DNA of 64,000 nt from positions 1 through 64,000 of IMG/VR virus record IMGVR_UViG_3300027533_000013; one strand, given 5' to 3'. Under the pieces are notes generated by a model, which saw nothing but the letters and a program-made list of their open reading frames with translations, was not told the origin of the DNA and searched no databases. Of this stretch, positions 5,809 through 47,794 are shown in pieces. The stretch is from a virus (taxonomy: Duplodnaviria; Caudoviricetes). Positions within the stretch are counted from its first letter, which is position 1, and the number at the start of each line of letters is the position of its first letter. Made by a program: the position numbers and the translations under genes.

Positions 5809-6401
5809 TGGAAGAAATCCTAATCGGCACGACCGACCGCTCCATCTTGGTGTTCGTGCCAGACCCAGCCGCCACAGATGGTACTGGGAAGACCGGGCTG
5901 GCACATACCGCCATGACCGTCAGCGTGACCCGTGTGGAGACGGACAATGACGTGGTCATCACCGATGCCACGTCCAGTCTGAACGCCCTCAGCACCCTCA
6001 CAGACGCCCACAACGACTGGGGCTGGAAGGAAGTGAGTAGCACGCTAGCCCCCGGCCTCTATCGCCTTGACGTGGCGGATGCCGCTTTTGCAGCCGGTGC
6101 TCTGTACGCAGTCATCTACGTCATGATCACCACGGGTGAAGCCGCAGCCGTCCCGAAGGCATTCCGTTTGATGACGTATACCGAAGTCATTGATGCGTTG
6201 TTGTGTCGTGACTGGACCGCGATCACGCTCACGCCTGCCGACAGATCCGTGCTGCAAGCCTTGAGGCTTCTGCGTAACAAGTGGGATATAGCGTTGGGCG
6301 TTCTTACCGTCAAGAAGGAAGACGACACCACCACGGCATGGACCTCGGTGTTGACGGGCGCTCCGGGGGCTGACCCCGTATCAGGGAGTGACCCCACGTG
6401 A
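5808..6401 (+). CDS. putative virion structural protein
   Basis: PGLYRLDVADAAFA; C-terminus RDWTAI..RLLRN.W..LTV.KEDD.TTAW..GSDPT shared with 7118-8485. Confidence 0.65.
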   Translation: MEEILIGTTDRSILVFVPDPAATDGTGKTGLAHTAMTVSVTRVETDNDVVITDATSSLNALSTLTDAHNDWGWKEVSSTLAPGLYRLDVADAAFAAGALYAVIYVMITTGEAAAVPKAFRLMTYTEVIDALLCRDWTAITLTPADRSVLQALRLLRNKWDIALGVLTVKKEDDTTTAWTSVLTGAPGADPVSGSDPT

Positions 6402-19739: not shown

Positions 19740-20264
19740 GTGAGACAAGTGTTAGGGCAAATACAGATACCGATAGGCAAGCGACAGTTCTACGTGGTGA
19801 CCGGGGGTCCATTCATGGAGTGCCCGTCCACCATGAAGGGCGTCAAAATGGCCAAGGAGATACGGAAGGATTGCGCCGTGGATATCCCGACGCAAGACTT
19901 TCATGTGCCTGACCGCCTGACCCTCTACCGGGGGCTGGACAAGGCTCTGGACCTGATGCTGGCGGGTGAACCCCTCTACGTCGGTTGCATGGGCGGGAAG
20001 GGGCGCACAGGGCTGTTCTTGGCCGTCCTAGCGAAAGCCTTCGGCGTCAAGAAGCCCGTGGAGTTTGTCCGAGCCAATTACTACGCGCATGCCGTGGAGA
20101 CTCAGGAGCAGTATCAGTTCGTGAAGCAGTTCCTGATCACGCCCCGGCAACGCCGGAAGATCAAGCTGGTGCGGCGGTGGGCATGGCTGAAGTTCTGGAG
20201 AACGAACCTGACCCGGCTACCAGCGGAGTTTCAACCAGAATACAGGCTGTCCGAGACAATTTGA
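19740..20264 (+). CDS. CX5R (PTP/dual-specificity) phosphatase
   Basis: IPTQDF acid loop, YVGCMGGKGRTG P-loop, AVETQEQ Q-loop. Confidence 0.85.
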   Translation: MRQVLGQIQIPIGKRQFYVVTGGPFMECPSTMKGVKMAKEIRKDCAVDIPTQDFHVPDRLTLYRGLDKALDLMLAGEPLYVGCMGGKGRTGLFLAVLAKAFGVKKPVEFVRANYYAHAVETQEQYQFVKQFLITPRQRRKIKLVRRWAWLKFWRTNLTRLPAEFQPEYRLSETI

Positions 20265-20330: not shown

Positions 20331-21422
20331 ATGAAATTTTTAGAACCAAACACACTGGCGCACTGGAACGCAGCCCCGCAGACCCATCTGCATAACTTTG
20401 CAGATTTGCCGGTCTCGGTGTTCGCCGCTTCGACGCTGAAATATCGGGACCATTGCAAGACGACTCATGACACGGTCAATCCTGAGAATGAGGCCGTGTC
20501 GTTTTACGCGCTCAACCATGCGGCGTCGATTGTTCGCAGGAAGTTCACTGAGAATGAACCGCTACCGGCATGGGCGCAAGAAATCATGGCGACCTACACC
20601 GAAGTGTGCGGGTTGCAAGGTGAGCGGATACTGCACTACCTGTTGCTGATCACGACGCGAGAAATGCGTCACCTGTATCCCGGCACGGAGACGTTCTGGA
20701 AGAAGGTGCAGAAGGAATTTGGCGACAAGGGTGTGGCTAATCTCAAGAACATCTCGTCGGACGGTAACGAAGATACCGCGATGAACAAGTATCTGATCAC
20801 GCCACCCGCGATGACCATCGGGGAATACACCAAGACGTTGTCGCTGGGGTTTCACAAGGGTTCGTGGGGCGGATCGTATGGCGGGAAGCCATGGGGCGAC
20901 ACGACCGATGCGCTCGTCTCCATGCTGACTGGTAACACGTCGATGGAAATACTGGTCGATACCGGCTACACGCTGGCGCACAACGGTGGACCCATCTTCG
21001 ACAAGGCCGCTGCCCACATGTATTCGCACTACGGGAGCCATCTGCTGACGGTGCTCGACGTGCAACGTGCGGGGCAGATGTTGGAACTGATGCTGGCCTC
21101 TGACACGTTTGGGATCACGAAGACGCCACACGCGATACGGGCCATGGAGTTGATCAAGGAATTTTGCCCGGTGGACGCTGAAGACAAGCCAACCATCAAG
21201 GGCTATGTGGACTGGAAGCTGGTGGATTCAGAACGTCCAGACAAGCATAAGAGTCCGAACAAGTATGCGAAATACATCGGGGCGCAAAAGCAGCCGAAGG
21301 CAAAGGCTGCACCCGTGAAGCCAGTAATCACGACGCTGGGGGGCAAGAAGATCAAGGTGACGGGCACGTTCCAAGTGTTCCCGAACCAAACGGTCAATAT
21401 CGTGGAGAGGGTAGGCAGCTAA
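20331..21422 (+). CDS. hypothetical protein, possibly enzymatic
   Basis: 363 aa; REMRH, WGGSYGGKPW, VD..YTLAHNGGPIFDK motifs; family not recognised. Confidence 0.7.
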   Translation: MKFLEPNTLAHWNAAPQTHLHNFADLPVSVFAASTLKYRDHCKTTHDTVNPENEAVSFYALNHAASIVRRKFTENEPLPAWAQEIMATYTEVCGLQGERILHYLLLITTREMRHLYPGTETFWKKVQKEFGDKGVANLKNISSDGNEDTAMNKYLITPPAMTIGEYTKTLSLGFHKGSWGGSYGGKPWGDTTDALVSMLTGNTSMEILVDTGYTLAHNGGPIFDKAAAHMYSHYGSHLLTVLDVQRAGQMLELMLASDTFGITKTPHAIRAMELIKEFCPVDAEDKPTIKGYVDWKLVDSERPDKHKSPNKYAKYIGAQKQPKAKAAPVKPVITTLGGKKIKVTGTFQVFPNQTVNIVERVGS

Positions 21423-22162
21423 TGGCACTGTGGGACACGTTCAAAAAGAATAGTGCGAAGGATGACTTCGCAGATACCGAGATGCCATTGCACTGCTATG
21501 AGTCGCATCCTGCGATGAAGTTGGGCAAGGGTGTGCTGGTCGGCGGAAGCGCCAGCCACCCTGCCGTGAAGGATGCCGACGTGTATGTGTCGTTGCAGAA
21601 CGGCAGCACGAGTGGCCGGTCGTCGGACCCATGGGAGCCGAAGGGGCACGTGGTCGAGGTTCACTACAGCATTCAGGACATGAACGCTCCGGTGAACCTG
21701 CCACGGTTCAAGAAGATGGTCACGTGGCTTTGCACTCAATTGCAGGAAGGCAAGAAGGTGCATGTCGGGTGTGTGGGTGGCCATGGTCGGACAGGGCTGG
21801 TGGTGTCTGCCATCGTGGCCGAGATGACCGAGAAGAAAGACGTCATTCAGTGGGTGCGGAAGCACTACTGCAAGAAGGCCGTTGAGTCGAAGTCGCAGAT
21901 CCAGTTCCTGATGAAGCACTACGGCGTGACCGAGGTCGAGGGGACCAAGACCTACAGTGGTAATGGTGGCAGCGGCAAGTATTTCAGTGGCGGCGGGACC
22001 AGTGCCATCGGTCAGTCGTATGAGACGTTCTCATCAAAGCTGGTGAAGTCGTCTGACATGCCCAAGGTGAAGCAGATTGTGCCAGCCGGGGTGACGTCGA
22101 AGACCAAGCAGTTCAGTCCGATGCCATCGGCTCGGAGTCTGTGGAAGGGCAAAAAGCTGTAA
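21422..22162 (+). CDS. CX5R (PTP/dual-specificity) phosphatase
   Basis: IQDMNAP, HVGCVGGHGRTG, KAVESKSQ. Confidence 0.85.
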   Translation: MALWDTFKKNSAKDDFADTEMPLHCYESHPAMKLGKGVLVGGSASHPAVKDADVYVSLQNGSTSGRSSDPWEPKGHVVEVHYSIQDMNAPVNLPRFKKMVTWLCTQLQEGKKVHVGCVGGHGRTGLVVSAIVAEMTEKKDVIQWVRKHYCKKAVESKSQIQFLMKHYGVTEVEGTKTYSGNGGSGKYFSGGGTSAIGQSYETFSSKLVKSSDMPKVKQIVPAGVTSKTKQFSPMPSARSLWKGKKL

Positions 22163-32746: not shown

Positions 32747-34612
32747 ATGCTCAAGTTGATTGGCGACCCGGTCCAGAAATCTGAACACCCCGAGCACAAG
32801 ATAACCTTCATCCAGAAGGTGATTAAGGGTGAGACGTGGCTGGTGATGGCACACAGTGCCGTCGAGCTAGAGGACGAATGGTCCAGCCTCTACTTCACGT
32901 CAGGCAGTCAGAACAACCTGTTCCTGATGCCGCCTTTCGAGCCGAATGTCTTGCTCAACCTTGTCCAGACCAACAATGTCCTGAACCAGTGCATCGAAGC
33001 GATGGAGGTGAACATCGATGGCACAGGGCATGAATTTGTCCCGGTGGATGAAGGGAAGGACATCGATAAGAAGGAAGAGAAGATCGCCAAGGCGTTCTTT
33101 GATGAGCCGTACCCGAACATCTCCATGGTCACCATCCGGCGCAAGTTGCGGCGGCAGATGGAGTCTGTAGGGTATGGGTTTATTGAAGTGCTTCGGAACA
33201 TGGCCGAGGACGTGGTGGGTCTTCGCAGTGTGGAGACGGCCCACATCCGGATGGTGAAACTAGACAAGCCCATCCAAGTCAAGAAGAAGGTGCAGCGGGA
33301 TGGCACAGAAGTCGAGCTACTGATCTGGGAACGTGAGCGTCGTTTTGCACAGACCGTCGCCCTGAAACAGCAAGTGTACTATCGGGAATTCGGAACCACC
33401 CGTCATATTAACCGTGACACTGGGGATTGGGAAGAAGAAGGCAAGAAGATCCCGCCTGAAAAGCGTGGGTCGGAGTTGCTCTGTCTGGGTATTAACCCCG
33501 ACGTGACCACTCCGTACTGGTTGCCACGATGGATTAACCAGTTACCATCAGTCATTGGCTCCAGAGCCGCCGAGGAACAGAACCTCCAGTTCTTGGATGC
33601 TGGTGGCCTGCCCCCAGCCATTGTGTTCATTCAGGGTGGCACACTCATCAAGGACACGTCCGACCAACTTCGCATGTATTTGTCGGGCCTCAACAAGAAC
33701 AAGAACCGGGCGGTGGTGGTCGAGGTCCAGTCATCGTCAGGTTCACTTGATGCGGCTGGCAAGGTCGATGTGAAGGTGGAGCGTTTCGGTTCTGCCCAGT
33801 CTCAGGATGCGATGTATACCCAGTATGATGAGTCCACTAAGGAGCACATCCGTATTGGCTTCAGACTCCCACCCCTGTTTCTGGGTTATGCGTCAGACTA
33901 CAACTTCGCCACCGCACAAGTGAGCTACATGGTGGCCGAGGCGCAGGTCTTTCTGCCAGAGCGTGCTGAGTTTGACGAGATGATCAACAAGACCATCATG
34001 AAGGAGCTAAAACTCAAGACGCTCCTGTTCAAGTCGAAGCCCATCACGCTGAAGGATGTGGAGACGCAGTTGAAAGCTCTTGAATTGTCGGCGGCACTGG
34101 CCACACGCGAGAGCTACCTGAAGGAAATCAACACAGTCAGTAGCATGGCACTGGAACTGGCTGAAGTGCCTGCTCAGGGTGTTGGTCCCGACAACGTGCC
34201 ACTCAAGAATACGCCTACGGCTGATGAACTGGATTCGGGTAAGTTGCCTGCATCCATGACGGAAGTGAAGCCGGGTGTGAAGCCAGAACCCAAGGAAACC
34301 ATCGAAGAAATGGGGAAGAAGGAAGAAGTCAAGTCCATGGCCCGAGCAAAGGCCAAGGCCATGTATACCTTCAAGGAGCGGAAGGCGGCAGGCGATCTAC
34401 TTGCGTTGACGCAGGACTATGCCATGTATCAGGGTCTGATGCCCACACTGGCACAGAAGCAGGAATTGACCGCTGAGCGTGCTGAGGAAATCAATGCTGA
34501 GGTCGAGTCGTTGCACCCCGAAGACCTGAGAGCGTTTAATAGCTTACTGGCTATGGTGGTGTTTGGGTCCGATGATGCGGACCTGTCGTCCATCGTTGCG
34601 GCGTCGAGGTAA
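32747..34612 (+). CDS. portal protein (PBSX/XkdE-like)
   Basis: PPFEP..L, CIEAM..NIDG.G, GYGFIEVLRN, YWLPRW, FRLPPLFLG..DYNFATA; first gene of head module. Confidence 0.88.
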   Translation: MLKLIGDPVQKSEHPEHKITFIQKVIKGETWLVMAHSAVELEDEWSSLYFTSGSQNNLFLMPPFEPNVLLNLVQTNNVLNQCIEAMEVNIDGTGHEFVPVDEGKDIDKKEEKIAKAFFDEPYPNISMVTIRRKLRRQMESVGYGFIEVLRNMAEDVVGLRSVETAHIRMVKLDKPIQVKKKVQRDGTEVELLIWERERRFAQTVALKQQVYYREFGTTRHINRDTGDWEEEGKKIPPEKRGSELLCLGINPDVTTPYWLPRWINQLPSVIGSRAAEEQNLQFLDAGGLPPAIVFIQGGTLIKDTSDQLRMYLSGLNKNKNRAVVVEVQSSSGSLDAAGKVDVKVERFGSAQSQDAMYTQYDESTKEHIRIGFRLPPLFLGYASDYNFATAQVSYMVAEAQVFLPERAEFDEMINKTIMKELKLKTLLFKSKPITLKDVETQLKALELSAALATRESYLKEINTVSSMALELAEVPAQGVGPDNVPLKNTPTADELDSGKLPASMTEVKPGVKPEPKETIEEMGKKEEVKSMARAKAKAMYTFKERKAAGDLLALTQDYAMYQGLMPTLAQKQELTAERAEEINAEVESLHPEDLRAFNSLLAMVVFGSDDADLSSIVAASR

Positions 34613-34614
34613 CC

Positions 34615-35715
34615 ATGGACTACGCCCGTATTCTCAAGTGGAGTCCTAACCAGTTGCGAAACCCCGCAGGGTCACCCGAGGGAGGACGATGGGCGAAGGG
34701 TCTTACCCCACAGGGGGAACGAGATCGATGGCATGGGAAGGATCAGGCGAAGGGTCGGAGACTTGGTACAACTGAGGCTGCTAGGACCATAGAATTTCAG
34801 AGGAATGAAGCTCCCACGTTTCCCAAGGGTACGAGCACTCAGCAACGTGAGTACATTGCAGGGCTGTCTCCGAAGGCGCAGCGACGTATTCGGGACGCTG
34901 AAAATAAAGTCATACAGGATGCAGCACTGGCCGAGATGAAAGCCAATATGGCGGTGTCAAAGTCCCCGCCACTGGATCGGACTCCGTCTGGTGAACACAG
35001 GAATACGCTCAGGACGCCCATCGTAGAACACTCAGAACACACACGGGAGTTGGGCGGCGGCATCAATGAATCCTTGGTGGTGGAAATTGATGGCAAAGAG
35101 TTTGTGTTCAAGCCGGTTGAGGGAGAAAAACATGGCGGGAGTGGTGAGGCGTCACTCGCAGAACGTGAAGTGATCGCATCTCGCATGGATGACGAACTGG
35201 GGTTCGACTTGGTGCCCATGACGGTGATGGGTGAAGTCGAAATCTCGGCCCCTAAATATCCAGAATATGACGAGACGCCTGTGAAAAGGATAGGCTCACT
35301 CCAAGAGTTTCAGGCAGGCGCAAGGAATTATGGCGTGGCGGATGTGAGTGGTCTGTCACGAAAAGATATCGGGAACATGGCGGTGCTCGATGCCCTTCTG
35401 GGAAATACTGACCGGCATACCGGTAATGCCATGGTGAAAGGTAATCAGTTAATTGCCATTGACCATGGTTACACGATGAGTGAAGTACGCGGCACCAACA
35501 GTTTAGCGGTCGATAATCTCAGACGAGATGATTTACCCACGAAATATCAGGGCGAATTAGCGGAGCGCATTGAGAAGATGGATGTAGCCCGTGTGCTTGA
35601 TGGGTCACATATTGGGAAGGCGGAACGAGCGTCCTTTGAGCGCCGGAGAAAAATCGTCATCAACCAGTTGCGTAAGGGAGAAATCCACCTGATTGGTGGA
35701 GCGTTATATGCGTGA
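34615..35715 (+). CDS. HipA/PI3-PI4-kinase-like kinase 1, putative head cargo
   Basis: VFKP, AERE, LVPMTV, GSLQ, NTDRHTGN, AIDHG; leader YARILKWSPNQLRNPAGSPEGGRW. Confidence 0.8.
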   Translation: MDYARILKWSPNQLRNPAGSPEGGRWAKGLTPQGERDRWHGKDQAKGRRLGTTEAARTIEFQRNEAPTFPKGTSTQQREYIAGLSPKAQRRIRDAENKVIQDAALAEMKANMAVSKSPPLDRTPSGEHRNTLRTPIVEHSEHTRELGGGINESLVVEIDGKEFVFKPVEGEKHGGSGEASLAEREVIASRMDDELGFDLVPMTVMGEVEISAPKYPEYDETPVKRIGSLQEFQAGARNYGVADVSGLSRKDIGNMAVLDALLGNTDRHTGNAMVKGNQLIAIDHGYTMSEVRGTNSLAVDNLRRDDLPTKYQGELAERIEKMDVARVLDGSHIGKAERASFERRRKIVINQLRKGEIHLIGGALYA

Positions 35716-35977
35716 ACTCACCATCTATAACTACAGCATGAAGCCCGAAGAAGTCTTGGGTAAGGTACGGCTGGTGGAGGGTGAAGTCACCATCACTGGA
35801 TTCCCACCACGGATGATGGCCGAGCTACAGGCAGGCATGCCTGATGCGAACACCGGCACCCGCATCATGCCGGATCAGGGCGTGGTGTTTTTCGAAGCGG
35901 TGCTGAATCGGTATACCGGAGCGTATGTCCGAGCCGTGGAGCGGAGCATGGCGGATGTATTGAAGTCCCATGGCTAA
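35708..35977 (+). CDS. small protein, putative immunity/antitoxin for kinase 1
   Basis: overlaps kinase stop; homologous to 40151 and 41623 ORFs. Confidence 0.6.
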   Translation: MRELTIYNYSMKPEEVLGKVRLVEGEVTITGFPPRMMAELQAGMPDANTGTRIMPDQGVVFFEAVLNRYTGAYVRAVERSMADVLKSHG

Positions 35978-36452
35978 ATCCTTCACCGACGTGCTCAAGT
36001 GGGATGAGCATAAGCATCCCAGAGATAAACATGGGTTGTTCACGATGGGGACAGGCCCATTTGGGCACACGCCTGATGACCCCAAAAAAATCGTGCAGGT
36101 CTATGGGCTATCAGACTTTCCAGAGGATGCCCCGCCAGATCCCTTGGAGCCCAAGTATCAGACCGAGGAGAGAGCCGAGCAGGCTGAGCGGCGAAGCCAG
36201 CGAATTCATCTGACCCAAGAAAGTGATCCCAAGCTCCCACCTATGGGGTCGTTGACCACGAATACCGCCGCCAAGCAGCGGGGTATTGAGCGGCGGAAGA
36301 AGCGGAAGGAAAAAGCCGCACGGATGGCCGAAGCCAGACGAAAAGAAGGTGGCGTCGTCGGAGCGAAGCAGAGAGCCCTAGATTTCCGCATGGCGCAAGG
36401 CCGCGCACAGCAGAAAATTATCCGAGCTATCCGAGAGCGTAAAGACGACTAG
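35970..36452 (+). CDS. basic putative head-cargo protein
   Basis: FTDVLKWDEHKHPRDKHGLFT leader. Confidence 0.6.
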   Translation: MAKSFTDVLKWDEHKHPRDKHGLFTMGTGPFGHTPDDPKKIVQVYGLSDFPEDAPPDPLEPKYQTEERAEQAERRSQRIHLTQESDPKLPPMGSLTTNTAAKQRGIERRKKRKEKAARMAEARRKEGGVVGAKQRALDFRMAQGRAQQKIIRAIRERKDD

Positions 36453-36454
36453 CC

Positions 36455-38092
36455 GTGGCGAAGACTGTAGACCTGAGAACGTATATCGCACTGGAGAGGG
36501 CGTTTCTTAGGCGTCTTCTGCGGACGTGGCGTATTCAGTCGGCTCCCATTTACCAGAAAATCACGCAAGCCTGTCTCGACCATAAATGGGATGAAGCCCG
36601 TCGATTGGTGCCCGATCTGGATATGGCTGAAGTCGGCACGGAAAACAAAGAGTGGATTACCTACATGCTCCTGTCGTGTGGCGTGTTCGGGGCCAACATG
36701 GTGGCGAGAGGTAAACCCTCCTTTGTGGGCGTGGGCACTTTCGATACCTTCCTGAAGCAGACCACCAACAACATGCTCCAGTATCTGGAGCACAACGCCA
36801 CCGCACAGATTCAGAAGGATGCTCTGCAATTGATTGCAGAGGATGAGGCCAAGACCAAAGCCATCAAGTTCGATGAGAGTAAACACCCACGAGATGGTAA
36901 AGGTAGGTTCGCTTACCATGGCACGTCCAATGAGTTGGCCGAGAAGATTCTGAAGGAAGGACTCAAGCCTCTCAGCGAGATGGATCGGAGTTCTCCCATA
37001 GGGAAAGGGTTTGCATCCACGAGTGAGAAAGTGGCGCTGAGTTATGCGGCGATGGCGTCGGATGATTCGGTGGACACTATTACAGTGTTTGTGTTCAAGC
37101 CAGAAGCCAGTCGTTACTTCCAGCCTGCCAACAAGCATGCTTTTGGGCCATCGGGTTCGTGGGCACAAGCGCGTAGCACAGAGATGTCGAGCACAGAGAC
37201 TGTGCCACCGGAATTGATTCACGAGGTGCGTCAGTATCGACTGGCTGATGTGGTCGAGGCACTAGGGCCGCAAGGTGGGAAACAGTATGCAGATTGGGAG
37301 TCTCCACTGGAGGATGTAGATCCAGTGAAGGTGGTCCGAAAAGAAGATCAGGTCATTTATGTGGCCTTTTTGACCACGTCTGGGCCTGTGTTAAAATGGG
37401 ATGCGTCGAAACACCCACGGGAACCCAAGGGAAGCGCCATAGGAGGGCAGTTCACCGAGGGAACCGTGCAGGAGGGTCCGGACTTTACCCGAGTGGCCAT
37501 CACGAGTCAGCGGCCAGAGGGTGATCCGGGGCACCAAGCGAACAAAGAGGTCTTCCAGCACATGCACGAGTTCCAGAGCCGTCTGGAGGCCCTACCGGGG
37601 GTTACCAGAGTCTCTGTGAAGCCGGGAGTCGGTGGGTGGGATGGTGGGTCGGAGTCCATGTGGCAAGTGTTCTACCGGGGCAACGGAGCCGCCAGACGGT
37701 TGGTGGCGCAGACGGCTAAGACGTTCAATCAGGATGCGGTGCTGGTCCTGAAGAAGTGTACGGGCAGTAATTGCCAGCCTGCGGTAGAATTGTCGTTCGC
37801 GGGTGGGGTGTCTCCGGTCGTCAGGGAAAAGGTCCATGCGGTGCTGGTGAAGAACGGCATCCAAGGGTGGACGTGGATGAAGCGGGGCGGAAAGACCCTA
37901 CTCCGGATGGTGTCGGTGCCCCAGTGGGGTGGCGTGGCTGAGAAGCACCAGAAGGCGACAGCCGCCGTCAGTCAGAAGTTACGAGAGGATGGGCTAGAGA
38001 ACCATCGTAGCGTGCATAAAGTGGCCGTATCGGTCATGGAGCGCGAGGGAGACAACAGCTATGACCGAATCATCGGACGAACAGGCACGTAA
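36455..38092 (+). CDS. polyprotein: helical N-domain (possible MuF N-half) + ADP-ribosyltransferase-like domain + unknown domain
   Basis: AYHGTS..ILKEGLKP..FASTS..ALSYA (H-type ART); two internal K|[FW]D.SKHPR..G..F leaders. Confidence 0.65.
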   Translation: MAKTVDLRTYIALERAFLRRLLRTWRIQSAPIYQKITQACLDHKWDEARRLVPDLDMAEVGTENKEWITYMLLSCGVFGANMVARGKPSFVGVGTFDTFLKQTTNNMLQYLEHNATAQIQKDALQLIAEDEAKTKAIKFDESKHPRDGKGRFAYHGTSNELAEKILKEGLKPLSEMDRSSPIGKGFASTSEKVALSYAAMASDDSVDTITVFVFKPEASRYFQPANKHAFGPSGSWAQARSTEMSSTETVPPELIHEVRQYRLADVVEALGPQGGKQYADWESPLEDVDPVKVVRKEDQVIYVAFLTTSGPVLKWDASKHPREPKGSAIGGQFTEGTVQEGPDFTRVAITSQRPEGDPGHQANKEVFQHMHEFQSRLEALPGVTRVSVKPGVGGWDGGSESMWQVFYRGNGAARRLVAQTAKTFNQDAVLVLKKCTGSNCQPAVELSFAGGVSPVVREKVHAVLVKNGIQGWTWMKRGGKTLLRMVSVPQWGGVAEKHQKATAAVSQKLREDGLENHRSVHKVAVSVMEREGDNSYDRIIGRTGT

Positions 38093-38231
38093 GGAGTTGC
38101 GGGAAGCGTTGGCTCAGGAGCAGGCCACAGGTGAACCAGTGGATGACTCGTGGACCAATGACCTACCCAGTGATCCACTCCCCGAGGATGACGAGGACGT
38201 GTCGGCCACGTTCGTGAAGAAGCATACGTAG
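38061..38231 (+). CDS. small acidic protein
   Basis: GAGGGA RBS; MTESSDEQARKELREALAQE..PEDDED (56 aa, not in ORF track). Confidence 0.45.
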   Translation: MTESSDEQARKELREALAQEQATGEPVDDSWTNDLPSDPLPEDDEDVSATFVKKHT

Positions 38232-38237
38232 GACACC

Positions 38238-40094
38238 ATGCCACCACTTACCCGGCAATTGATTGCAACTATCAAGTCTATGGTGCAGGGCTATGCCCAC
38301 GTCTTGAAGTGGAATCGCAACCAGCCGCGTGGCCCGAAGGGGTCAGCCACGGGTGGGCAGTGGATCAGTCAAGGGAGTCATGGGACCGGAGCGGCCAGCG
38401 CAATCGATGATAAATACGGCACGGCACCGGGGATGGAACGCTACGCCACCCATGGGGATCGTGGCGCAGGCTTTTCCACCATGGATCGAGCACGGGCTAT
38501 CGCAGGCCACACGCGGACACCCGACCCATCCTTCAAGCCTGTTCTGTTGAACGTCAAAGAAGGTGGCCGAGGATTTGTGAATCGTCCTCGTGGAGTGGGT
38601 GTTCCCGAACCACCACCGCCTGATCCACATCAGGAAGTCATTCAGGCCCTGAAGACCGACCGAGCGACAGACAGCCGCCCACTGGGGAATGCAGGCAATG
38701 CGAATGCCTCATGTGTGGTGACGTTGGTGGATGACAAGGGGGAGACCATCGAAGCCGTCTATAAACCCGAACGTGGTGAATCGTGGAGTTTGCGTTTTGC
38801 GAACCATGACATCAAGAAGATGGTCACCAACAAGGACTTTTCGTTGGCGGCTCGTGAAACCTTTGCGTATGAGGTGGATTCGGCACTGAAGCTGGAAATC
38901 GTGCCTGAAACCGTGCTCCGTGAGGTCGTAGACGAAACTAACATCGATATCAACACCAAGGCCAAAGGCGGAATGAACAGTGGTGATGGGCAGGGATACG
39001 ATTCAGACCAAGCCCGAGAGGATTATCGAGACTATCAGGAAAATGCCGAAGAAGACGCCAGAGAAAATGCCTATGAGGAAGCTGGCGACCAGATGGCTGA
39101 CCTATACCATGAGGCACAAAAAGAGCATGTTTCTGATATCCAAGAACGTGCCAAAGAGGTACAGGAAATCTGGGATGAGGAATATGAGGCGTTCAGAGAT
39201 CAGGATGCCCATGGAACACGTTCCGCCATGTTGGAACATCCCACGTTGCCCATGGGGTCTAAGGAACCCTTTGAGCGCAAGCCGGATGAAGGCAAACTGA
39301 ATCCCATCGAGTTTCTGGATGAAGCAAACGTCGATGTCACGGACTCTATGAACGAGGCCGAGGAAAACAAGGTCCGAGAACTTATCCGAGCGAAATTGAA
39401 GGACGGCTACAGCGGGTTCGATGAAGTCGATGAAGATGACGCGGAAGAACATCTGGACCGGGATAAATTCATCGAAGACCATGCGGACACCGAGGCCAGA
39501 ATCATTGACAGTATCGTAGCGAAAAACGTCCAGTCCTATACCGAGTGGCGTCACGACCATGGGTATAACACGTCAGGCACTGCTCCGAGCGGCAGTGGGA
39601 GTGGCAGTGGCCCTGATATGAATCCTGATGCGCCCCATCCTCAAGGGGGGTCGTTTCAGCACTACCGCAGTGATGCACGGAAAGACGGATACCTCAGTGC
39701 CAGTGGTGGAGCCAAGTTGGCGGTGCTGGACTACATGATCGGCACCATGGATCGTCACCCGAACAATTTGATGTACGACGGAACGGAACCTGTGGCTATC
39801 GACAACGGCTACAGTATGCCTGCGGTGCCTGACGGTGATCCGCCCGATGCTTTCACCTTCCGGTCGCATGGCGCGAGGGATTGGGCTAGTTCCGGCACAA
39901 TACCAGACGCCACCCGAACTGAGATACTCGATTCCATGTCGAAGACGAATTGGCAGGCCGTGATGGACCGCCACCCGAACATGAATGCACTGGAGCGGAA
40001 GGCATTTCTGGGCCGTGTCGAGAAGATGAAGACGGCGTTGGGCACTCCGGATGGCCTGAAAAACCTGTGGAGCGGTTTGAACAATATGTGGTAA
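38238..40094 (+). CDS. HipA/PI3-PI4-kinase-like kinase 2 with large acidic insertion
   Basis: VYKP, ARE, IVPETV, MDRHPNN, AIDNG; leader YAHVLKWNRNQPRGPKGSATGGQW. Confidence 0.8.
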   Translation: MPPLTRQLIATIKSMVQGYAHVLKWNRNQPRGPKGSATGGQWISQGSHGTGAASAIDDKYGTAPGMERYATHGDRGAGFSTMDRARAIAGHTRTPDPSFKPVLLNVKEGGRGFVNRPRGVGVPEPPPPDPHQEVIQALKTDRATDSRPLGNAGNANASCVVTLVDDKGETIEAVYKPERGESWSLRFANHDIKKMVTNKDFSLAARETFAYEVDSALKLEIVPETVLREVVDETNIDINTKAKGGMNSGDGQGYDSDQAREDYRDYQENAEEDARENAYEEAGDQMADLYHEAQKEHVSDIQERAKEVQEIWDEEYEAFRDQDAHGTRSAMLEHPTLPMGSKEPFERKPDEGKLNPIEFLDEANVDVTDSMNEAEENKVRELIRAKLKDGYSGFDEVDEDDAEEHLDRDKFIEDHADTEARIIDSIVAKNVQSYTEWRHDHGYNTSGTAPSGSGSGSGPDMNPDAPHPQGGSFQHYRSDARKDGYLSASGGAKLAVLDYMIGTMDRHPNNLMYDGTEPVAIDNGYSMPAVPDGDPPDAFTFRSHGARDWASSGTIPDATRTEILDSMSKTNWQAVMDRHPNMNALERKAFLGRVEKMKTALGTPDGLKNLWSGLNNMW

Positions 40095-40100
40095 CAGTAA

Positions 40101-40129
40101 TTGACAAATTGTTCAAATTGTGATACAGT
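40101..40129 (+). promoter_or_regulatory. sigma70 promoter for putative immunity gene
   Basis: TTGACA-17-TACAGT, extended TG; GGAGG RBS follows. Confidence 0.7.
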
Positions 40130-40150
40130 AATGGGTGGAGGATTCTAGTT

Positions 40151-40378
40151 ATGCACACCGAGATTTGGGATCATACGGGGGGAAGGTCGAGGGTGATGGC
40201 CATCGTCCGAGTGGATGGTGGAAAGCTCTCGATTGAAGAAAAAGAACCCATGCCGCCATCCTATCACAAGATGATCGAGATGACGCAGGCACGGATGCAC
40301 GGAGAACGAGCGTTTCTACGGCAGTTGGAAGTGGAATTTTCGGGGTCATACATCACGGCGACGTTCAAGAAAGACTGA
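40151..40378 (+). CDS. small protein, putative immunity/antitoxin for kinase 2
   Basis: VRVDGGKL..FLRQLEVEFSGSY, homologous to 35708 and 41623. Confidence 0.6.
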   Translation: MHTEIWDHTGGRSRVMAIVRVDGGKLSIEEKEPMPPSYHKMIEMTQARMHGERAFLRQLEVEFSGSYITATFKKD

Positions 40379-40380
40379 CC

Positions 40381-41583
40381 ATGCTGATCTTCCAGCGGAA
40401 GCCTGTGCAATCAATTGCATACGTCTCCATCCTGAAGTGGGATCGGAACCAGCCCCGTGTCCCGAAAGGGTCACCAGAGAGTGGACGATGGACGCAGGGT
40501 GGTGTCAGTCAGGGTCTCGCCGCCACCACCATGGCCGGTCGAACGCCCAGAACGTCTACGTTCAAGCCGCCTGAGTATGGCTTTGGCAGTACGGAAGATC
40601 GTCGGATGGAAGCAGATAGGGCAAAAGCCGCAGGGTTTGCCACGATCATGAACGCCCCCATGGGCACGGGGTTTGCGAACCCACCACGTATCACCGGGCA
40701 ATCTTCGATGGTGAGGCGGTTGACGACGCCATCGAAAGCCCCGGTAGTATCGGCGGCACCAACTGGTTCGTCATTGAATTCGATGAGGACTGGCAACATC
40801 GCAGATTCTGAGGAAATCAATCCGGGGACACACGCCAATGAAACGTACAAAGTGACGTTGGAGGATGGGACCGTTGCCGCATTGAAGGCTGAATCAGGTG
40901 AACGCTGGGCCGCAGCCTTTTGGAATGACGATATTTCAAACTACGTCATCAACCGGGATCTGTCGCTGGGTGAGAGAGAAGCCATTGCCTTTGAAGTCTC
41001 AGAGGCGTTAGGACTGGATCTGGTGCCGGAGACGGTCCTCCGAGAACACATTGATGTTGTTAGTACCGGGCAACCTTTTGAGGGAGTGAACATCATGAAT
41101 GATGAGGCACCCCATCCACATGGAGGTAGTCTCACGAAGTGGGTGCCGGGTATTGATTCCGATGGTCAGAAAGCGACTCCACAAGAAATCCGAAGACTGG
41201 CAGTATTGGATTACGCTATGGGGCAGATGGATCGGCATCCCAACAATGTGTCCTTCGACGCTAATGGCAAGCTCCTCGCCATGGACAATGGTTACAGTCT
41301 TCCGGCTCCCATCTATGGTCATGATGAATTCACTTTCCGGTCGGCCACCACAAGAACGTGGAGGGAGTCAGCTAGTGACGACTTTCCAGAGGATGAACGG
41401 AAGCAAATGGCCGATGCGTTAGATAGGACGGACTGGACAGCGTTTGCTGATCGTCATTCGGGCATGAGCAGTCGAGAACGTGAAGCGTTTTTGGGTCGCA
41501 TTGAGAATCTGAAAGAAGCCATGAAGACCACCACGGGCTTGAAGGAACTGTGGAAGAACCAGACCCTGTATATGGACAATTGA
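40381..41583 (+). CDS. HipA/PI3-PI4-kinase-like kinase 3
   Basis: ALKA, GERE, LVPETV, MDRHPNN, AMDNG; leader YVSILKWDRNQPRVPKGSPESGRW. Confidence 0.8.
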   Translation: MLIFQRKPVQSIAYVSILKWDRNQPRVPKGSPESGRWTQGGVSQGLAATTMAGRTPRTSTFKPPEYGFGSTEDRRMEADRAKAAGFATIMNAPMGTGFANPPRITGQSSMVRRLTTPSKAPVVSAAPTGSSLNSMRTGNIADSEEINPGTHANETYKVTLEDGTVAALKAESGERWAAAFWNDDISNYVINRDLSLGEREAIAFEVSEALGLDLVPETVLREHIDVVSTGQPFEGVNIMNDEAPHPHGGSLTKWVPGIDSDGQKATPQEIRRLAVLDYAMGQMDRHPNNVSFDANGKLLAMDNGYSLPAPIYGHDEFTFRSATTRTWRESASDDFPEDERKQMADALDRTDWTAFADRHSGMSSREREAFLGRIENLKEAMKTTTGLKELWKNQTLYMDN

Positions 41584-41601
41584 CAAATTATCTGATAGAC
41601 T
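41573..41601 (+). promoter_or_regulatory. sigma70 promoter for putative immunity gene
   Basis: TGGACA-17-TAGACT, extended TG; GGAGG RBS follows. Confidence 0.55.
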
Positions 41602-41622
41602 ACAGGGGCATGGAGGTGCTAG

Positions 41623-41868
41623 TTGTACGCAGAACTTATCAATTATTCGATGGACCCGCCTAAAGTGATCCGGACCATCCGGATCGTGGATGGGAAGCTC
41701 GTCCAGACGGGTGACATGTCTCCGGAGAAGAGACGGCATCTGGAGCAGGAATATCATCTGTTCAAGACCAAGCTGAACGGCAGCGATAAGGATTTCTTGG
41801 AGAATCGGTTGGACGTGGTATTTGCGAGTAACACGTATTACAAGCCGAAGTTTCACCCCGAGGAGTAA
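41623..41868 (+). CDS. small protein, putative immunity/antitoxin for kinase 3
   Basis: INYSMDPPKV..IRIVDGKL; NYSM.P shared with 35708. Confidence 0.6.
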   Translation: MYAELINYSMDPPKVIRTIRIVDGKLVQTGDMSPEKRRHLEQEYHLFKTKLNGSDKDFLENRLDVVFASNTYYKPKFHPEE

Positions 41869-41873
41869 TACCC

Positions 41874-43649
41874 GTGCTGCAATCGATTGCAGGATATGCG
41901 GCGGTGCTGAAGGGTGGCACCTATAGCTATGGGAATACCCAGATCCCTATTGCTCCTACCAGTGCAGCCGCGCTTAGTCTGAACATGGCCCGAGACGCCA
42001 TTCAGGATGACCATCTGGAGGGCGCAGGAAAGGACGTGGACCCCAACCACGTCACGGTGCGGTATGGCCTGTTGAACGAGAACCTCGACGCCCTGAGAGC
42101 CTTTCTTGCCAGTCAGAAGCCTTTTGAGGCGCGAGTCGAGGGGGTGGAGTTATTCCCTGCCTCAGAACACTCGGATGGAGCCGTGCCCGTGGTGGCGAGG
42201 ATCGTGTCACCCGAGTTGCACGCTATCGAGGCTGAGATTGGAAATTACGCAGATTTCAAGGAAAAGAGCTTCCCGGTTTACAAACCGCACTGCACATTGG
42301 CGTATTGTAAACCGGAGATTGCCGAGCGGTATCAAGAACTATTTGTCTATGGTTCGTTTGTGGTGCAGAGCATCACCATCAGCCATGCGTCAGGTGTGCA
42401 GGAAACCATCCCGTTCGGTATAACGAATAAGTTCGATGTAACGAAGAAAGATCCGGTCAGCGGACGTTATGTCACGCCGTTTGTGTCGTTCGATAAGCAA
42501 GGCGATGAGCAGCTACGTATGATTACCAGTCTCAACGCCAGCCGCTTGGCGACGTGGGGATTTACGGCTGAGGCCGAAGTGCTGGGGATGGCCCGGTATC
42601 GTCTGACCGCCGTGCTCGATGGTCGGACCAGTAAGTTCTGCCGCATGATTGATGGCCATATTTTTGATGTGGCTGATGCGCGTGAGAAGGTGATTGAAGC
42701 CCTGAACGTGCAAGACCCCAACGACCTTCGCGTCGTCCAACCATGGCCCAAGCAGGACAAAGCATCGATGGCCATGTACAGCGAGATGAATGCCCAAGAA
42801 CTGACTGACCGAGGGCTACACATCCCACCCTACCACCCGCACTGCCGCACGTTGTGCCGGTCGGTGGAGTCGAGCAAGGGGAAGACCACCGAGGTCACGG
42901 CCACGGTGCCTGATGGGACTGAGGTCTTTCAGCCTGTCACAGCGGCTGACCTAGCGGAGATCGGTGTGACAGCGACTCCTGAACAGGTGGCCGAGTGGAA
43001 CGCCAACATCGGCATGTCTCCGGTCGAGTTGATGACCAAGCTCACTGGAGGGCGTCCCCAAGAGGTGATGACACGAGGCGTTGGTTCGAAGCCGGTGGAG
43101 TTTCATCCCTCTGGGGATATCGGACTGAACGCCCGAGGGGTCACGGATGGGGTGGAATTCAAGCTGGGGGCGATACTGGACCCATTCACGGGTATCTTCT
43201 ACTTGACCCGTGCGGAGTTGGCTGAGGGCACGCCAAAGGCCGAGGCCGCGTTCCTGAAGCGTATGTTCAGTGCCATGCTGGACATGGGGAAGAAGTCCAC
43301 GGCATCCTCGATTGCGCTCAGCGTGGCCGGTAATGCGGCATACTACGCCAAGCTGGGATTTCTGCCTGACGAGTTGGAATGGGATGCTCTGCGGACGTAT
43401 TCACTGGGAGAGTTGGAAGCAGGAGTGTTGCAGCCGATGATGGCATCGCTGGCCCCGGCTGATGCGTTGCTGGTGAAGCAGCTACTACAAGATGGGTCAC
43501 CATCGGCCTTAGTTGCTCTGACCGAGCTACCGTTCACCTACGCAGGCAAGACCATCGGTGAGTGGATTCTCAGTGAGTCGTCAGGTATTTGGGCACTGGA
43601 TCTGGCCGATGATTTGATGGTAGCGCAGGCGAAAGCGTACCTCTCATGA
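41874..43649 (+). CDS. Acb1/gp57B-like 2H phosphodiesterase + MuF (SPP1 gp7-type head morphogenesis) domain + GNAT-like C-terminal domain
   Basis: HVTVRYG and YKPHCTLAY (two HxT); AVLDGRTS.FC..DG..PPYHPHCR (MuF); AAYYAKLGF (GNAT-like). Confidence 0.8.
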   Translation: MLQSIAGYAAVLKGGTYSYGNTQIPIAPTSAAALSLNMARDAIQDDHLEGAGKDVDPNHVTVRYGLLNENLDALRAFLASQKPFEARVEGVELFPASEHSDGAVPVVARIVSPELHAIEAEIGNYADFKEKSFPVYKPHCTLAYCKPEIAERYQELFVYGSFVVQSITISHASGVQETIPFGITNKFDVTKKDPVSGRYVTPFVSFDKQGDEQLRMITSLNASRLATWGFTAEAEVLGMARYRLTAVLDGRTSKFCRMIDGHIFDVADAREKVIEALNVQDPNDLRVVQPWPKQDKASMAMYSEMNAQELTDRGLHIPPYHPHCRTLCRSVESSKGKTTEVTATVPDGTEVFQPVTAADLAEIGVTATPEQVAEWNANIGMSPVELMTKLTGGRPQEVMTRGVGSKPVEFHPSGDIGLNARGVTDGVEFKLGAILDPFTGIFYLTRAELAEGTPKAEAAFLKRMFSAMLDMGKKSTASSIALSVAGNAAYYAKLGFLPDELEWDALRTYSLGELEAGVLQPMMASLAPADALLVKQLLQDGSPSALVALTELPFTYAGKTIGEWILSESSGIWALDLADDLMVAQAKAYLS

Positions 43650-43871
43650 AGATGACCTTGAAACCGCTCAAGACAGACCATGCCACGCTAAAAATGGTGG
43701 TGTCGAAGCCTGTACCGAAGGCCAAGGCCCATCTCCAGTTGGTGACCAGACAGGGTGTGTCATCGGAACGAGCGAAGCAGTTACTGAGCTAGGAAAATAG
43801 TTGTTGCGTTCTTGCGTTGTCCTGTAAAATAAGACCCCGTGCAACTGATTGCAATTGTGAGTCAGTAACCC

Positions 43872-44978
43872 ATGCCCCTGCATACGAGTCGATTCGTGTC
43901 CCGGTATGGACTCACACATGCCGCAGAGCCATCCAAACCCAAACTCCCCTTTGAATTAGTCCTGAAGTTCAACAAGTGCCACGCAGACAATTCCGGCCAA
44001 TTCTGTGACACGAGTGGTGGCACAGGTGGTAAAGAAAGTGGCGGCATAGGCGGTAAAGAAAAAGAGACTGCGAACTTCAAGAAAACTGTCCCGAAGGACG
44101 GTGAATATCCGGTAGGCACAGAACAAGACCCCATCATCAGGGCGTCAGTGAAACGTCGGTACATGGCGGGGGAAATTGAACTGGCCGACGAGCAAAAAGA
44201 ATTCTTTGGGATCGGGCCGGAAGTGAAGTTCAATTCCAAAGCGGCCAAGGTGACGAAACCCTCCGCGAAGCCATCCGACGTGAAGTCTGAGGACGGGCCG
44301 ACGCAAGTGTTCTTGGATGCCAGTACGCCGGAAGGTATCACCACGGCGCTGAAGGCCATGGGATGGAAAGATAAGAGCAAGGTTACGAACCGTGACGAAC
44401 TTTTCAAAATCGCGGAAAACAATGGGAAGATTGCGGAGAAAGGGCGTAAGCTCATTCTTGAGGCGTTGGAAAGTAGCCCCCGTGGGAAGGGAAAGGTCAA
44501 GGTAACGAAGGCGAGTGGGATTGATCAGAAGACGGCGGATAAGCTACAAGCCAACGTCAATCTCTTGCTGCACCCGACCATCCTGAAGCAGTTGAAGTCC
44601 AAGAGTACGAATCTGACGAGGGGCAGGTCGAGTGGAGATGCCCATTACTCACATTCTATTGAGGGTCAGATTACGTTTGGGCATGGGATGAATAAAAACG
44701 ATCAAGAAGCAATCTATGTTCATGAATTCGGGCATAGAATTGAAGTGTCAGTCAAAGGGTTGTTGGCGAAGGCAACCAAGGCCCGAGACAAAGCCGTCAG
44801 TGAGAACGAACCGTTGGTCAATGAATACTCCGAGAAAGTGTACGAGCATATTAAGGGCACAGAATATGTGTCGTCTGGATACGAGCACTACTTCCGCGAT
44901 CCCATTTCCTTTGCCGCCAAAGCCCCGAAACATTTTACGTTCATTCATCGGCTGGTGACGCGAGGGGAGTTGGTATAA
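43872..44978 (+). CDS. putative head cargo with zincin metallopeptidase domain
   Basis: YVHEFGHRIE plus downstream EYVS; leader FELVLKFNKCHADNSGQFC. Confidence 0.65.
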   Translation: MPLHTSRFVSRYGLTHAAEPSKPKLPFELVLKFNKCHADNSGQFCDTSGGTGGKESGGIGGKEKETANFKKTVPKDGEYPVGTEQDPIIRASVKRRYMAGEIELADEQKEFFGIGPEVKFNSKAAKVTKPSAKPSDVKSEDGPTQVFLDASTPEGITTALKAMGWKDKSKVTNRDELFKIAENNGKIAEKGRKLILEALESSPRGKGKVKVTKASGIDQKTADKLQANVNLLLHPTILKQLKSKSTNLTRGRSSGDAHYSHSIEGQITFGHGMNKNDQEAIYVHEFGHRIEVSVKGLLAKATKARDKAVSENEPLVNEYSEKVYEHIKGTEYVSSGYEHYFRDPISFAAKAPKHFTFIHRLVTRGELV

Positions 44979-45244
44979 TGCAGGCGGTTATTAAGGTCGA
45001 GGGTGTCGAGGCGACATTCGATGGAGAGCGATGGGAGTGTCCCGATGCGACGTTAGCGGCGTTCCTGAATGCGTTTCGGTGGATGGGTTCTCGCCATAGC
45101 CAGTATGGTAGTGCTGGAAGCCATGCGGTGGCGGTGGCTGAAGAAATAGGAGCCGAAGTCGTTTCGGTGGAAGATACACCCACGGATAATGTCGATATCG
45201 TGAAGGGGTTGGGGGAGTCCGACGATGAGTCGGATGAGGAGTAG
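44978..45244 (+). CDS. small acidic protein, possible peptidase immunity
   Basis: coupled (TAATG) to peptidase gene; acidic tail. Confidence 0.5.
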   Translation: MQAVIKVEGVEATFDGERWECPDATLAAFLNAFRWMGSRHSQYGSAGSHAVAVAEEIGAEVVSVEDTPTDNVDIVKGLGESDDESDEE

Positions 45245-46068: not shown

Positions 46069-46344
46069 ATGCCGCTCACGAACGGGTTGTTGACGAGTCG
46101 TGCGGCTGCTCTGAAGGGTGAGGGCCATATTCACTCGGAGAAGTGGCATCGCTGTGTGGAGCACGTCAAGGCCAAGGGTGGTGGATACGATCCGTACGCC
46201 GTCTGCACCTTCAGCATTGGGTACAATGAGTCGGTCAACAAGGAACATCAGACGCCGGGGCCACATTCTTCACGAGACACCCGCAGATTCAAGCGGCGGA
46301 AAGAGCGTGCTGAAAAGTATGCCGACGTATTGAAATTCAAATAA
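46069..46344 (+). CDS. small head-associated protein
   Basis: KWHRCVEHVK..PYAVCT; ends YADVLKFK. Confidence 0.55.
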   Translation: MPLTNGLLTSRAAALKGEGHIHSEKWHRCVEHVKAKGGGYDPYAVCTFSIGYNESVNKEHQTPGPHSSRDTRRFKRRKERAEKYADVLKFK

Positions 46345-46604: not shown

Positions 46605-46673
46605 GGAAATTCTCCTGACGGTTGGCAATTGATTGCACGAATGGATCAGTTGCCAACCTGATTGGGGTGTAGA

Positions 46674-47207
46674 ATGTCCTTGGTACTGAAGTCCGAAGAA
46701 CAGCACATTGTCATGGGCGTTGCTCCGGGCTATTGGGTGTCGAATGATGGCCGAGTGTGGTCCACACGTCCATTGAACGGGCAGGGGCCATTATTGCCGT
46801 GGGAACAGCGCCGAGAGATGAAACCGATTGTTCAGCACAATCAATATCGAACGGTGGTGATTGATAGAAAGACCGTGGCAGTTCATGCACTTGTACTAAC
46901 GGCGTTTGTAGGCCCACGACCAGCCGGGAAGCAATGTCGCCATTTGGATGGTGACAAGTCGAATAACCGGCGAGACAATTTGATCTGGGGTACTTGTGTT
47001 GAGCAGTCAGAAGATCGGGCCAAACACGGCACTAAGTTAGTAGGGTCGAAGATAGGCACGGCGAAGTTGACTGAAGCGCAAGTGAAAGAAGCGCGGAGTA
47101 TGCGACCCACTTTTCCGCTTGATTACATTGCCAAGAAATTTGGAGTGACTAAGACCTGTATTTGGCATGCTGTTTCTGGTTCCGGCTCCAATTGGAGACA
47201 CGTATGA
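46674..47207 (+). mobile_element. free-standing NUMOD4/HNH homing endonuclease
   Basis: YWVSNDGRVWS, VHALV..AFVGP.P..CRHLDGDKSNNRRDNL.WGT, C-terminal HTH. Confidence 0.85.
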
Positions 47208-47794
47208 ACCGAAAACTCGTAATCAAACAGGACGGTGAACTTCAGATAGCGATGGGCGAAGTTTACGCCCCCAACCGTCCTGATGCACAGGGTGAGTACA
47301 TGACGGTGGTGGAAATTCGGAAAATGGCCCATGAGTTTATCCGCTCTGGTAAGATGAAGCAGATCGACTTGATGCACGGTAATAAGATTGTTGAGGGCGC
47401 GAGTGTTGTAGAGTCGTTCGTCTCGGACGCATCCGACACACGGTTCCTACCTGATTCATGGGTGATTGGTGTTCATATCCCCGACCCAACTTTGTGGTCG
47501 TCCATCAAGAAGGGCGAAATCAACGGTTTCAGCATGGAAGCTCTCGTGTCCCGACACGATACGGATGTGGAGATTGAAATTCCTCCGGTCGTGTCAGGGT
47601 TGACCAGTAAGGGTGATGACGGTCATGAGCATAAATTCTTCGTCACCTATGACGAAAAGGGACAGTTCAAGGGTGGATTGACGGATGTGGTCAATGGCCA
47701 TTCGCATACCATCGTGGCGGGGACGCATACCCAAGACAGTCAAGGTCATCGCCATCGATTTAGTTCTGTTGATAACGTCCGAATCTTGAGGTAG
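47204..47794 (+). CDS. XkdF-like prohead serine protease
   Basis: GEVYAP..DAQGE, IDLMH, VVESF, W..IKKGEINGFS; GHxH repeats at C-terminus. Confidence 0.85.
   Translation: MNRKLVIKQDGELQIAMGEVYAPNRPDAQGEYMTVVEIRKMAHEFIRSGKMKQIDLMHGNKIVEGASVVESFVSDASDTRFLPDSWVIGVHIPDPTLWSSIKKGEINGFSMEALVSRHDTDVEIEIPPVVSGLTSKGDDGHEHKFFVTYDEKGQFKGGLTDVVNGHSHTIVAGTHTQDSQGHRHRFSSVDNVRILR

Follow-up and report, generated by a model that had tools for sequence, protein, structure and literature searches.

Three kinase genes and their small neighbours

The window analysed here is a stretch of 64,000 nucleotides (nt), positions 1 to 64,000 of the IMG/VR record IMGVR_UViG_3300027533_000013, which belongs to an uncultured sediment phage of the Caudoviricetes. 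Between its positions 34,615 and 41,868 lie three genes for kinases (kin1, kin2 and kin3), each with a short open reading frame (ORF) for a protein of 75-89 amino acids (aa) behind it (s1, s2 and s3; Table 1). A sequence-only reading had taken them for three paralogous pairs, each made of a HipA/PI3-4K-like kinase toxin and its cognate small protein. All six frames lie at the positions it gave, on the + strand, and, as it said, the catalytic motifs of the kinases are intact. The pairs are nonetheless part of a larger array of tagged cargo genes, not a self-contained triplication.

The beta3 lysine, the helix-C glutamate, and the DRHxxN and D[HN]G motifs are retained in all three proteins (K166, E185, D266, N271 and D283 in kinase 1; K176, E207, D505, N510 and D522 in kinase 2; K169, E200, D284, N289 and D302 in kinase 3), and each matches the Pfam family PI3_PI4_kinase (E 5e-9, 1e-7 and 1.5e-5, respectively). 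The N-lobe of kinase 2 holds an acidic insert of about 235 residues, 26% of them Asp or Glu. The Gly-rich loop, the Lys and the Glu, the catalytic Asp/Asn and the Mg-binding Asp that mark the atypical kinase fold of HipA/HipT are present. The model of kinase 1, built with high local confidence (pLDDT 92.7), has a complete helical C-lobe. Its nearest solved structure is a type II phosphatidylinositol 4-kinase (PI4KII; Z 21.8, root-mean-square deviation (rmsd) 2.9, 224 residues aligned), followed by CtkA (Z 15.2), Fam20 (14.3), HipT (13.3) and HipA (12.2), and PI4KII is the best sequence match too (profile E 1.7e-12). None of the three kinases matches HipA_C (PF07804) or Couple_hipA at E 0.1, HipA is absent from the 60 best PDB sequence matches of the kinase, and the neighbouring ORFs scanned hold no match to a HipB-type helix-turn-helix antitoxin. 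There is no match to the Kinase-PolyVal Pfam family either, and the C-terminal kinase subdomain is present. Scores against TIGR03843, the SCO1664 family, stay at 42.6, 28.1 and 35.6 bits, under the curated cut-off of 172, while PADLOC returns weak candidate matches for kin1 only (E 0.002-0.005). Judged by the modelled fold, the kinases are members of the wider HipA/Fam20/PI4KII group, of the type II PI4K kind rather than HipA; the second half of the earlier label has held, and HipA has turned out to be the weaker name (Z around 12, no HipA_C).

A search for the kinase family collected 840 representatives at E < 0.001, and 125 related loci (numbered with an L below) were examined. A tblastn search with kin1 against cultured phages found no match. 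Related kinases occur in virion modules of cultured viruses, Myxococcus phage Mx1 (L136:3909-5768) and the haloviruses HRTV-7 and HSTV-2 (L137:3527-5219); the ORFs behind them do not score as partners, a 76-aa halovirus ORF being partner-like by eye only.

A family of partners

Each of s1-s3 is preceded by a GGAG or GGAGG ribosome site. That they resemble one another, as had been claimed, is borne out by BLASTP (s1-s3, 1e-6; s2-s3, 1e-4) and by the comparison of hidden Markov models (HMMs) between the lineage groups of s1, s2 and s3, where the probabilities are 75%, 94% and 99.7%; the C-terminal motif that was part of the claim is degenerate in s3. With HMMs built from sequences outside the window, s1-s3 come out as the top three of the 2032 reading frames of the genome, s3 being weak in this ranking (E 0.55 for the broad model and 8e-8 for that of the clade). 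An iterative search of the fetched loci led to about 70 distinct members, and a search independent of the kinases to 129 proteins, many of them from Patescibacteria. No family was found for the partner in Pfam, PHROG, NCBIfam, PADLOC or PDB sequences; none of 67 members matches a Couple_hipA or HipS-like domain, and a profile-profile comparison with three HipN/HipS-type ORFs gave nothing (0.1%).

The model of s1 is of high quality (pLDDT 96.6). When it was compared with 350,000 chains using Foldseek, the top three matches were Legionella HipS and the HipA N-terminal domain, and upon re-alignment the top nine were all HipS or the HipA N-subdomain. These alignments are collinear over 65-72 of 81 residues, with weak scores (Foldseek E 0.13-0.6, TM 0.45-0.54, Z 3.6-4.5, rmsd about 4); the ESM Atlas and BFVD gave unnamed or low-scoring look-alikes only. 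A remote HipS-like fold of the partner, as modelled, is a coherent but weak lead.

While s1 overlaps its kinase gene and no promoter of its own was found for it in the scan, a sigma70-type promoter element stands between kinase and partner in the case of s2 and of s3. Most related phages have this element before the partner too, at the same spacing; it scores 9.5 or more in 8 of 10 clade cases with a gap, against a maximum of 8.5 at 65 other gene starts. Promoter-like sites over the whole region are no more frequent than in shuffled sequences, so that the promoter evidence rests on conserved position; upstream of the kinases no such site was found. The tag that marks the cargo (see below) is missing from the partners. 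A tagless, separately promoted partner fits what would be expected from an inhibitor that the infected cell produces without need of the late operon.

The protein encoded next carries the partner as an N-terminal fusion in 9 of 69 cases (among them L052:4216-10129, L068, L004, L020, L040, L063 and L074). Locus L052 even forms a chain: kinase, partner-kinase, partner-kinase, partner.

Kinase and partner travel together

The related loci were fetched by their kinase, which builds co-occurrence into the sample; exact position is not built in. A partner stands directly behind 67 of 108 kinases, and 68 of 74 partners start between -9 and +86 nt from the kinase stop. Distances in the kinase tree are correlated with those in the partner tree (rho 0.50, p 0.001), and the nearest neighbours agree pair by pair: L004 and L011 for kin1 and s1, L009 and L062 for kin2 and s2, the L001/L002/L081 group for kin3 and s3. 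The two genes thus pass from phage to phage as a single cassette, and the acquisition of kin1/s1 was separate from that of the others. The adjective paralogous conceals that kin1/s1 is of another lineage than kin2/s2 and kin3/s3. A recent triplication within the genome was considered and rejected: the kinase domains are 27-46% and the partners 17-25% identical, and kin1/s1 groups with other phages.

Some partners are not directly behind a kinase (L089:2277-4641, L075:5297, L053:6705-6935); they are extra, upstream or inverted, and possibly orphan immunity genes. The pair is also found in chromosomes of Patescibacteria (Yanofskybacteria/Paceibacterota), between gyrB and secE-nusG-rplK (L126, L129 and L131, around 5200-6300; L106:2370-3397). 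In the three Patescibacteria cases inspected, the start of the partner overlaps a kinase-type gene's stop, at a site flanked by gyrB and secE. In these organisms the partner is conserved at 60-84% and the kinase at 26-45%, and the catalytic motifs are lost in two of four kinases (L126 and L131).

The phage and its cargo array

The genome of the phage has 119.7 kb and is probably complete and circular, since the contig start (1-800) is repeated at 118902-119701. The capsid protein shares 69% identity with those of Stenotrophomonas phages DLP5 and DLP3, with which the genome has portal, protease, terminase, polymerase and other genes in common. All 30 bins of the region are covered by contigs of four public runs, which stem from up to four studies, without a sign of misassembly, which led us to reject an assembly artefact; runs in which the region occurs come from sediment, groundwater and soil. 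DLP5 and DLP3 are temperate and DLP5 is maintained as a phagemid (PMC5834331, PMC7326821). In the complete genome considered here no integrase, recombinase or ParB was found, and the ParB gene of DLP5 has no match. A host search using the portal gave a single match (33%) on a 2-kb contig of a metagenome-assembled genome, which is not informative.

DLP5 has a single MuF gene, of 446 aa, between portal and XkdF protease. Here the interval between the two measures 12.6 kb and MuF is split into two pieces, the start of 36455-38092 corresponding to DLP5 residues 3-127 and the middle of 41874-43649 to residues 136-275; in the DLP5 protein the junction that corresponds to the split is a V-x-K site. 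Kinase 1 lies upstream of the first piece, kinases 2 and 3 between the pieces. The modules around them are ADP-ribosyltransferase (ART)-like, S-adenosylmethionine (SAM) lyase-like, 2H/Acb1-like and zincin, mostly by weak matches.

Each cargo module opens with the tag K/[WFY][DNS]..[HQ].R..G.[FW], where the slash marks the putative cut. The tag occurs seven times in the genome, always within 34636-43965, against 0.13 in shuffled sequences, and in related phages it heads every module, including those inside polyproteins of 1100-1800 aa. In 45 of 60 instances of the clade a Lys precedes the tag aromatic; the capsid protein, the scaffold and the portal likewise contain V-x-K/[AS][DE] sites, and in some other phages the motif is preceded by Glu, Ala or Arg. 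From these sequences we infer that the prohead protease may cut at the tag, exposing a conserved new N-terminus. Two variants, each on a single contig of low depth, have another tagged ORF right after the portal stop or an in-frame, tag-to-tag deletion of the ART module, a weak indication of tag-bounded exchange.

The strongest argument for packaging comes from homologues. Among the 47 long ORFs of homologous kinases that have a partner, MuF is present in 17, a portal domain in 2+2 and an XkdF protease in one; in these fused genes the partner is directly behind and head genes come next, an arrangement typical of MuF toxins and their immunity genes (PMC5576092), which points to delivery at injection. 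No MuF domain was found on the three window kinases with Pfam or PHROG. It is further known that the MuF orthologue and the protease of DLP3 were detected in ghost particles, with a caveat of contamination (PMC7326821).

Table 1. Genes and signals of the head-module region, in window coordinates.
Feature	Position	Strand	Remarks
Portal protein, left border of the cargo array	32747..34612	+	TIGR01540 E 9e-32; 48% identity to DLP5 portal
Kinase 1 (kin1, 366 aa)	34615..35715	+	Short leader, tag at K8 (34636), linker, type II PI4K-like domain at about aa 142-366
Partner s1 (89 aa)	35708..35977	+	8-nt overlap with kinase 1 stop; member of the partner family
Tagged basic ORF, 160 aa	35970..36452	+	Tag at 35997; no Pfam or PHROG match
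MuF N-terminal half (aa 7-131) and two tagged modules	36455..38092	+	34% to DLP5 MuF aa 3-127
Modules of the preceding gene	Within 36455..38092		ADP-ribosyltransferase-like (PARP E 5e-4) and SAM-lyase-like (S-AdoMet_lyase E 0.04), both weak; tags at 36866 and 37394
Acidic ORF, 56 aa	38061..38231	+	Also represented in four related phages; may be a partner for the module upstream
Kinase 2 (kin2, 618 aa)	38238..40094	+	Leader, tag at K24 (38307), kinase domain
Sigma70-type promoter upstream of s2	40101..40129	+	TTGACA-17-TACAGT with TG extension; spacing matched in related phages
Partner s2 (75 aa)	40151..40378	+	56-nt gap after kinase 2
Kinase 3 (kin3, 400 aa)	40381..41583	+	Leader, tag at K19 (40435), kinase domain
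Sigma70-type promoter, extended -10, upstream of s3	41573..41601	+	Overlaps kinase 3 stop
Partner s3 (81 aa, TTG start)	41623..41868	+	39-nt gap after kinase 3; most divergent of the three partners
2H phosphoesterase (Acb1-like, weak) and C-terminal MuF half	41874..43649	+	2_5_RNA_ligase2 E 1.5e-9, Acb1 E 0.007, Phage_Mu_F E 6e-5; 56% to DLP5 MuF aa 136-275
Tagged HExxH metallopeptidase-like cargo	43872..44978	+	Weak zincin matches; tag at 43965; 88-aa ORF (44978-45244) behind
Tagged basic ORF, 279 aa	45225..46064	+	No known domain
XkdF-type prohead serine protease	47204..47794	+	PF14550 E 2e-22; proposed cutter of the tag site
Scaffold	47799		Downstream of the protease
Major capsid protein	49007		Downstream of the scaffold

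Several other genes deserve mention. The small acidic ORFs behind the SAM-lyase-like module and behind the zincin (38061-38231 and 44978-45244) are candidates for further immunity genes, and the first is fused to the next cargo in locus L081. At 46069-46344 an ORF of 91 aa, kept in related phages, closes with the tag's leader half (V-L-K followed by F), and no cargo comes after it. An HNH-like ORF upstream of the protease (46662-47207) is probably mobile: one public-run contig skips 46712-47252. Further upstream, two tyrosine/dual-specificity phosphatase-like genes (19740-20264 and 21422-22162) belong to a cluster before the DNA polymerase that is common to DLP5; their products could reverse phosphorylation, yet DLP5 has them without a kinase gene in its head module.

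Injected kinases under the control of cognate inhibitors?

The reading that we favour, and to which we would give an even chance, is that the phage packages and injects protein kinases, which are kept silent by cognate HipS-like inhibitors with an early and independent synthesis. The kinases would be made late, with the head genes, then enter the prohead, where the XkdF-type protease would cut after the tag lysine. Ejected with the DNA, they would phosphorylate proteins of the host during the opening minutes of the next infection, with a defence blunted or a cell redirected as the outcome, by analogy with the T7 kinase. Each small ORF would encode a remote HipS-like inhibitor of its own kinase, keeping it quiet during synthesis in the producing cell; the partners of kinases 2 and 3 would also be made from a host-type promoter straight after DNA entry and may in this way end the burst of injected enzyme. 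Precedents exist for both halves of the scheme: HipS inhibits HipT through direct binding (PMC10627512), and small cognate immunity genes follow MuF toxins (PMC5576092, PMC12226406). The core of the sequence-only reading, a kinase toxin with its cognate partner, has gained from the linkage, the mirrored trees, the HipS-like fold (weakly), the promoters and the fusions, and what it has lost is the picture of a self-contained triplication.

A number of observations weigh against such a role. The modelled kinase fold is far nearer to a lipid kinase than to HipT or HipA, and the likeness of the modelled partner to HipS is weak (Z 3.6-4.5), with no support in sequence. No partner is detectable behind 41 of 108 related kinases, some of them HipA-type or with missed members. 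The correlation of the trees reflects in part the common ancestry of the carriers, and a partner that outlasts its kinase in Patescibacteria hints at a role independent of the kinase.

A larger construction can be built on the same ground, and we hold it doubtful: the tag, behind a site matched to the prohead protease, would be a general, MuF-independent address by which capsids are loaded with effectors and release them, the phage would inject three orthogonal kinases timed by separately transcribed inhibitors of a HipS-like family not recognised before, and Patescibacteria would keep the inhibitor in a housekeeping locus to shield themselves from kinases of this sort.

Another view of the same genes, kin discrimination, appears unlikely to us. 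The packaged kinases would then act as a MuF polymorphic toxin, poisoning cells devoid of partner; the target would be rival phages or non-immune hosts, not host defence, with partners expressed constitutively from a resident (plasmid) prophage or from a sibling already infecting the cell. The nearest cultured relatives lend themselves to this idea, being temperate and, for DLP5, a phagemid (PMC5834331, PMC7326821), whereas in the present genome no integrase, recombinase or ParB was found, nor a match to the DLP5 ParB. Sigma70 promoters on the partners only, three pairs so divergent that their partners are 17-25% identical, population variants that swap cassettes at the tag and the orphan-like partners of L089, L075 and L053 would also suit it; the adjacent cargo (2H/Acb1-like, SAM-lyase-like, ART) resembles anti-defence rather than killing.

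Phosphatidylinositol is missing from most bacteria, which counts against taking the resemblance to PI4KII at face value. Were the kinases nevertheless to act after injection on a lipid or small molecule, whether of the membrane, of inositol-like metabolism or of nucleotide-based immune signalling, the partner might still be an inhibitor. PI4KII is indeed the best match in sequence as in structure, the SCO1664 family matches weakly, and signal-degrading enzymes would be packed alongside. However, the protein kinases CtkA, Fam20C, HipA/HipT and CotH have the same fold, the phage domain has about 225 aa only, without the long insertions of PI4KII, and pairing with a HipS-like protein parallels protein-kinase toxins; we see this reading as quite unlikely.

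It is very unlikely, to our mind, that the small protein is no inhibitor but a lid or subunit that has become detached, a chaperone, or a protein that has a function of its own and simply travels with the kinase. A tagless partner is not predicted to be packaged with its kinase, a promoter of its own uncouples it from kinase synthesis, and rapid pairwise divergence fits cognate inhibition. What keeps this idea alive is that the structural matches include the HipA N-subdomain itself, a part of HipA, together with the fusions of the partner to the next protein (9/69) and its persistence beyond the kinase in Patescibacteria. Ordinary toxin-antitoxin morons (addiction or abortive infection) sitting in the head module and never packaged are hardly credible: the kinase-then-HipS-like order is that of hipJS (10.1101/2021.04.14.439929), the pair is chromosomal in Patescibacteria and PADLOC gives weak candidates for kin1 only, but all three kinases are tagged, their homologues are fused to MuF, portal or prohead protease, and no promoter-like site precedes them.

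Phage kinases were recently shown to disarm many defences at once, and the known ones are made after entry. If packaged kinases with cognate inhibitors are what the window encodes, the injected enzymes and the inhibitors dedicated to them would achieve this by a new route and would add a new toxin-immunity pair to the MuF class. With its three divergent pairs, this single genome offers a ready grid for testing cognate against non-cognate combinations. The partner family (about 70 viral and more than 100 mostly Patescibacteria-type sequences, with no Pfam entry) may extend the HipS fold to PI4KII-like kinases, and the split MuF with its tag-to-tag variants makes the loading signal testable in cultured DLP3 and DLP5.

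Comparison with known systems

We found no description of the kinase-partner pair or of the tag in the literature searched, the coverage of which is incomplete. Nearest in fold are the type II PI4 kinases, with the same catalytic motifs, while identity is about 18% and the window kinases are much shorter; the SCO1664 family (TIGR03843) has the same motifs too, at 28-43 bits against a cut-off of 172. For two phage kinases, gp0.7 of T7 and JSS1_004 (PMC13645617, PMC12345140), a short burst of activity that disarms the defences of the host has been proposed as well. Those are expressed early, have a DPV-type motif and are shut off by autophosphorylation, whereas for the window kinases the prediction is injection, with a partner to shut them off.

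HipBST and hipJS (PMC10627512, PMC9325769; Gerdes et al. 2021, 10.1101/2021.04.14.439929) combine a small kinase lacking the N-subdomain with a separate small protein of HipS-like fold, as the modelled partner weakly suggests here, and hipJS has the same order, kinase then partner. The window kinase differs in being PI4KII-like, not HipA_C; its partner has no Couple_hipA/HipN sequence match, there is no HipB, and the context is that of a virion.

Polyvalent proteins are closer in setting: parts of the account of Iyer et al. (2017, PMC5512222) tie mixed early-acting effectors (ART, 2H, zincin, kinase) to MuF and portal, and relatives of the window phage likewise concatenate modules into proteins of 1100-1800 aa. 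In those parts of the account the kinase clade is without a C-terminal subdomain, whereas the window kinase has a full helical C-lobe, and neither a tag nor an immunity partner is described there.

MuF polymorphic toxins (Jamet et al. 2017, PMC5576092; Apk2/IapK, PMC12226406) also have enzyme cargo of the head module adjoining the portal, each followed by a small ORF, and homologues of the window kinase are true MuF C-terminal fusions with a partner directly behind. The 2017 paper (PMC5576092) never uses the word 'kinase', and the window kinases stand on their own and are tagged, with MuF split around them. The system would work like MuF polymorphic toxins and polyvalent cargo and is not a strict member, because its kinases are stand-alone and tagged.

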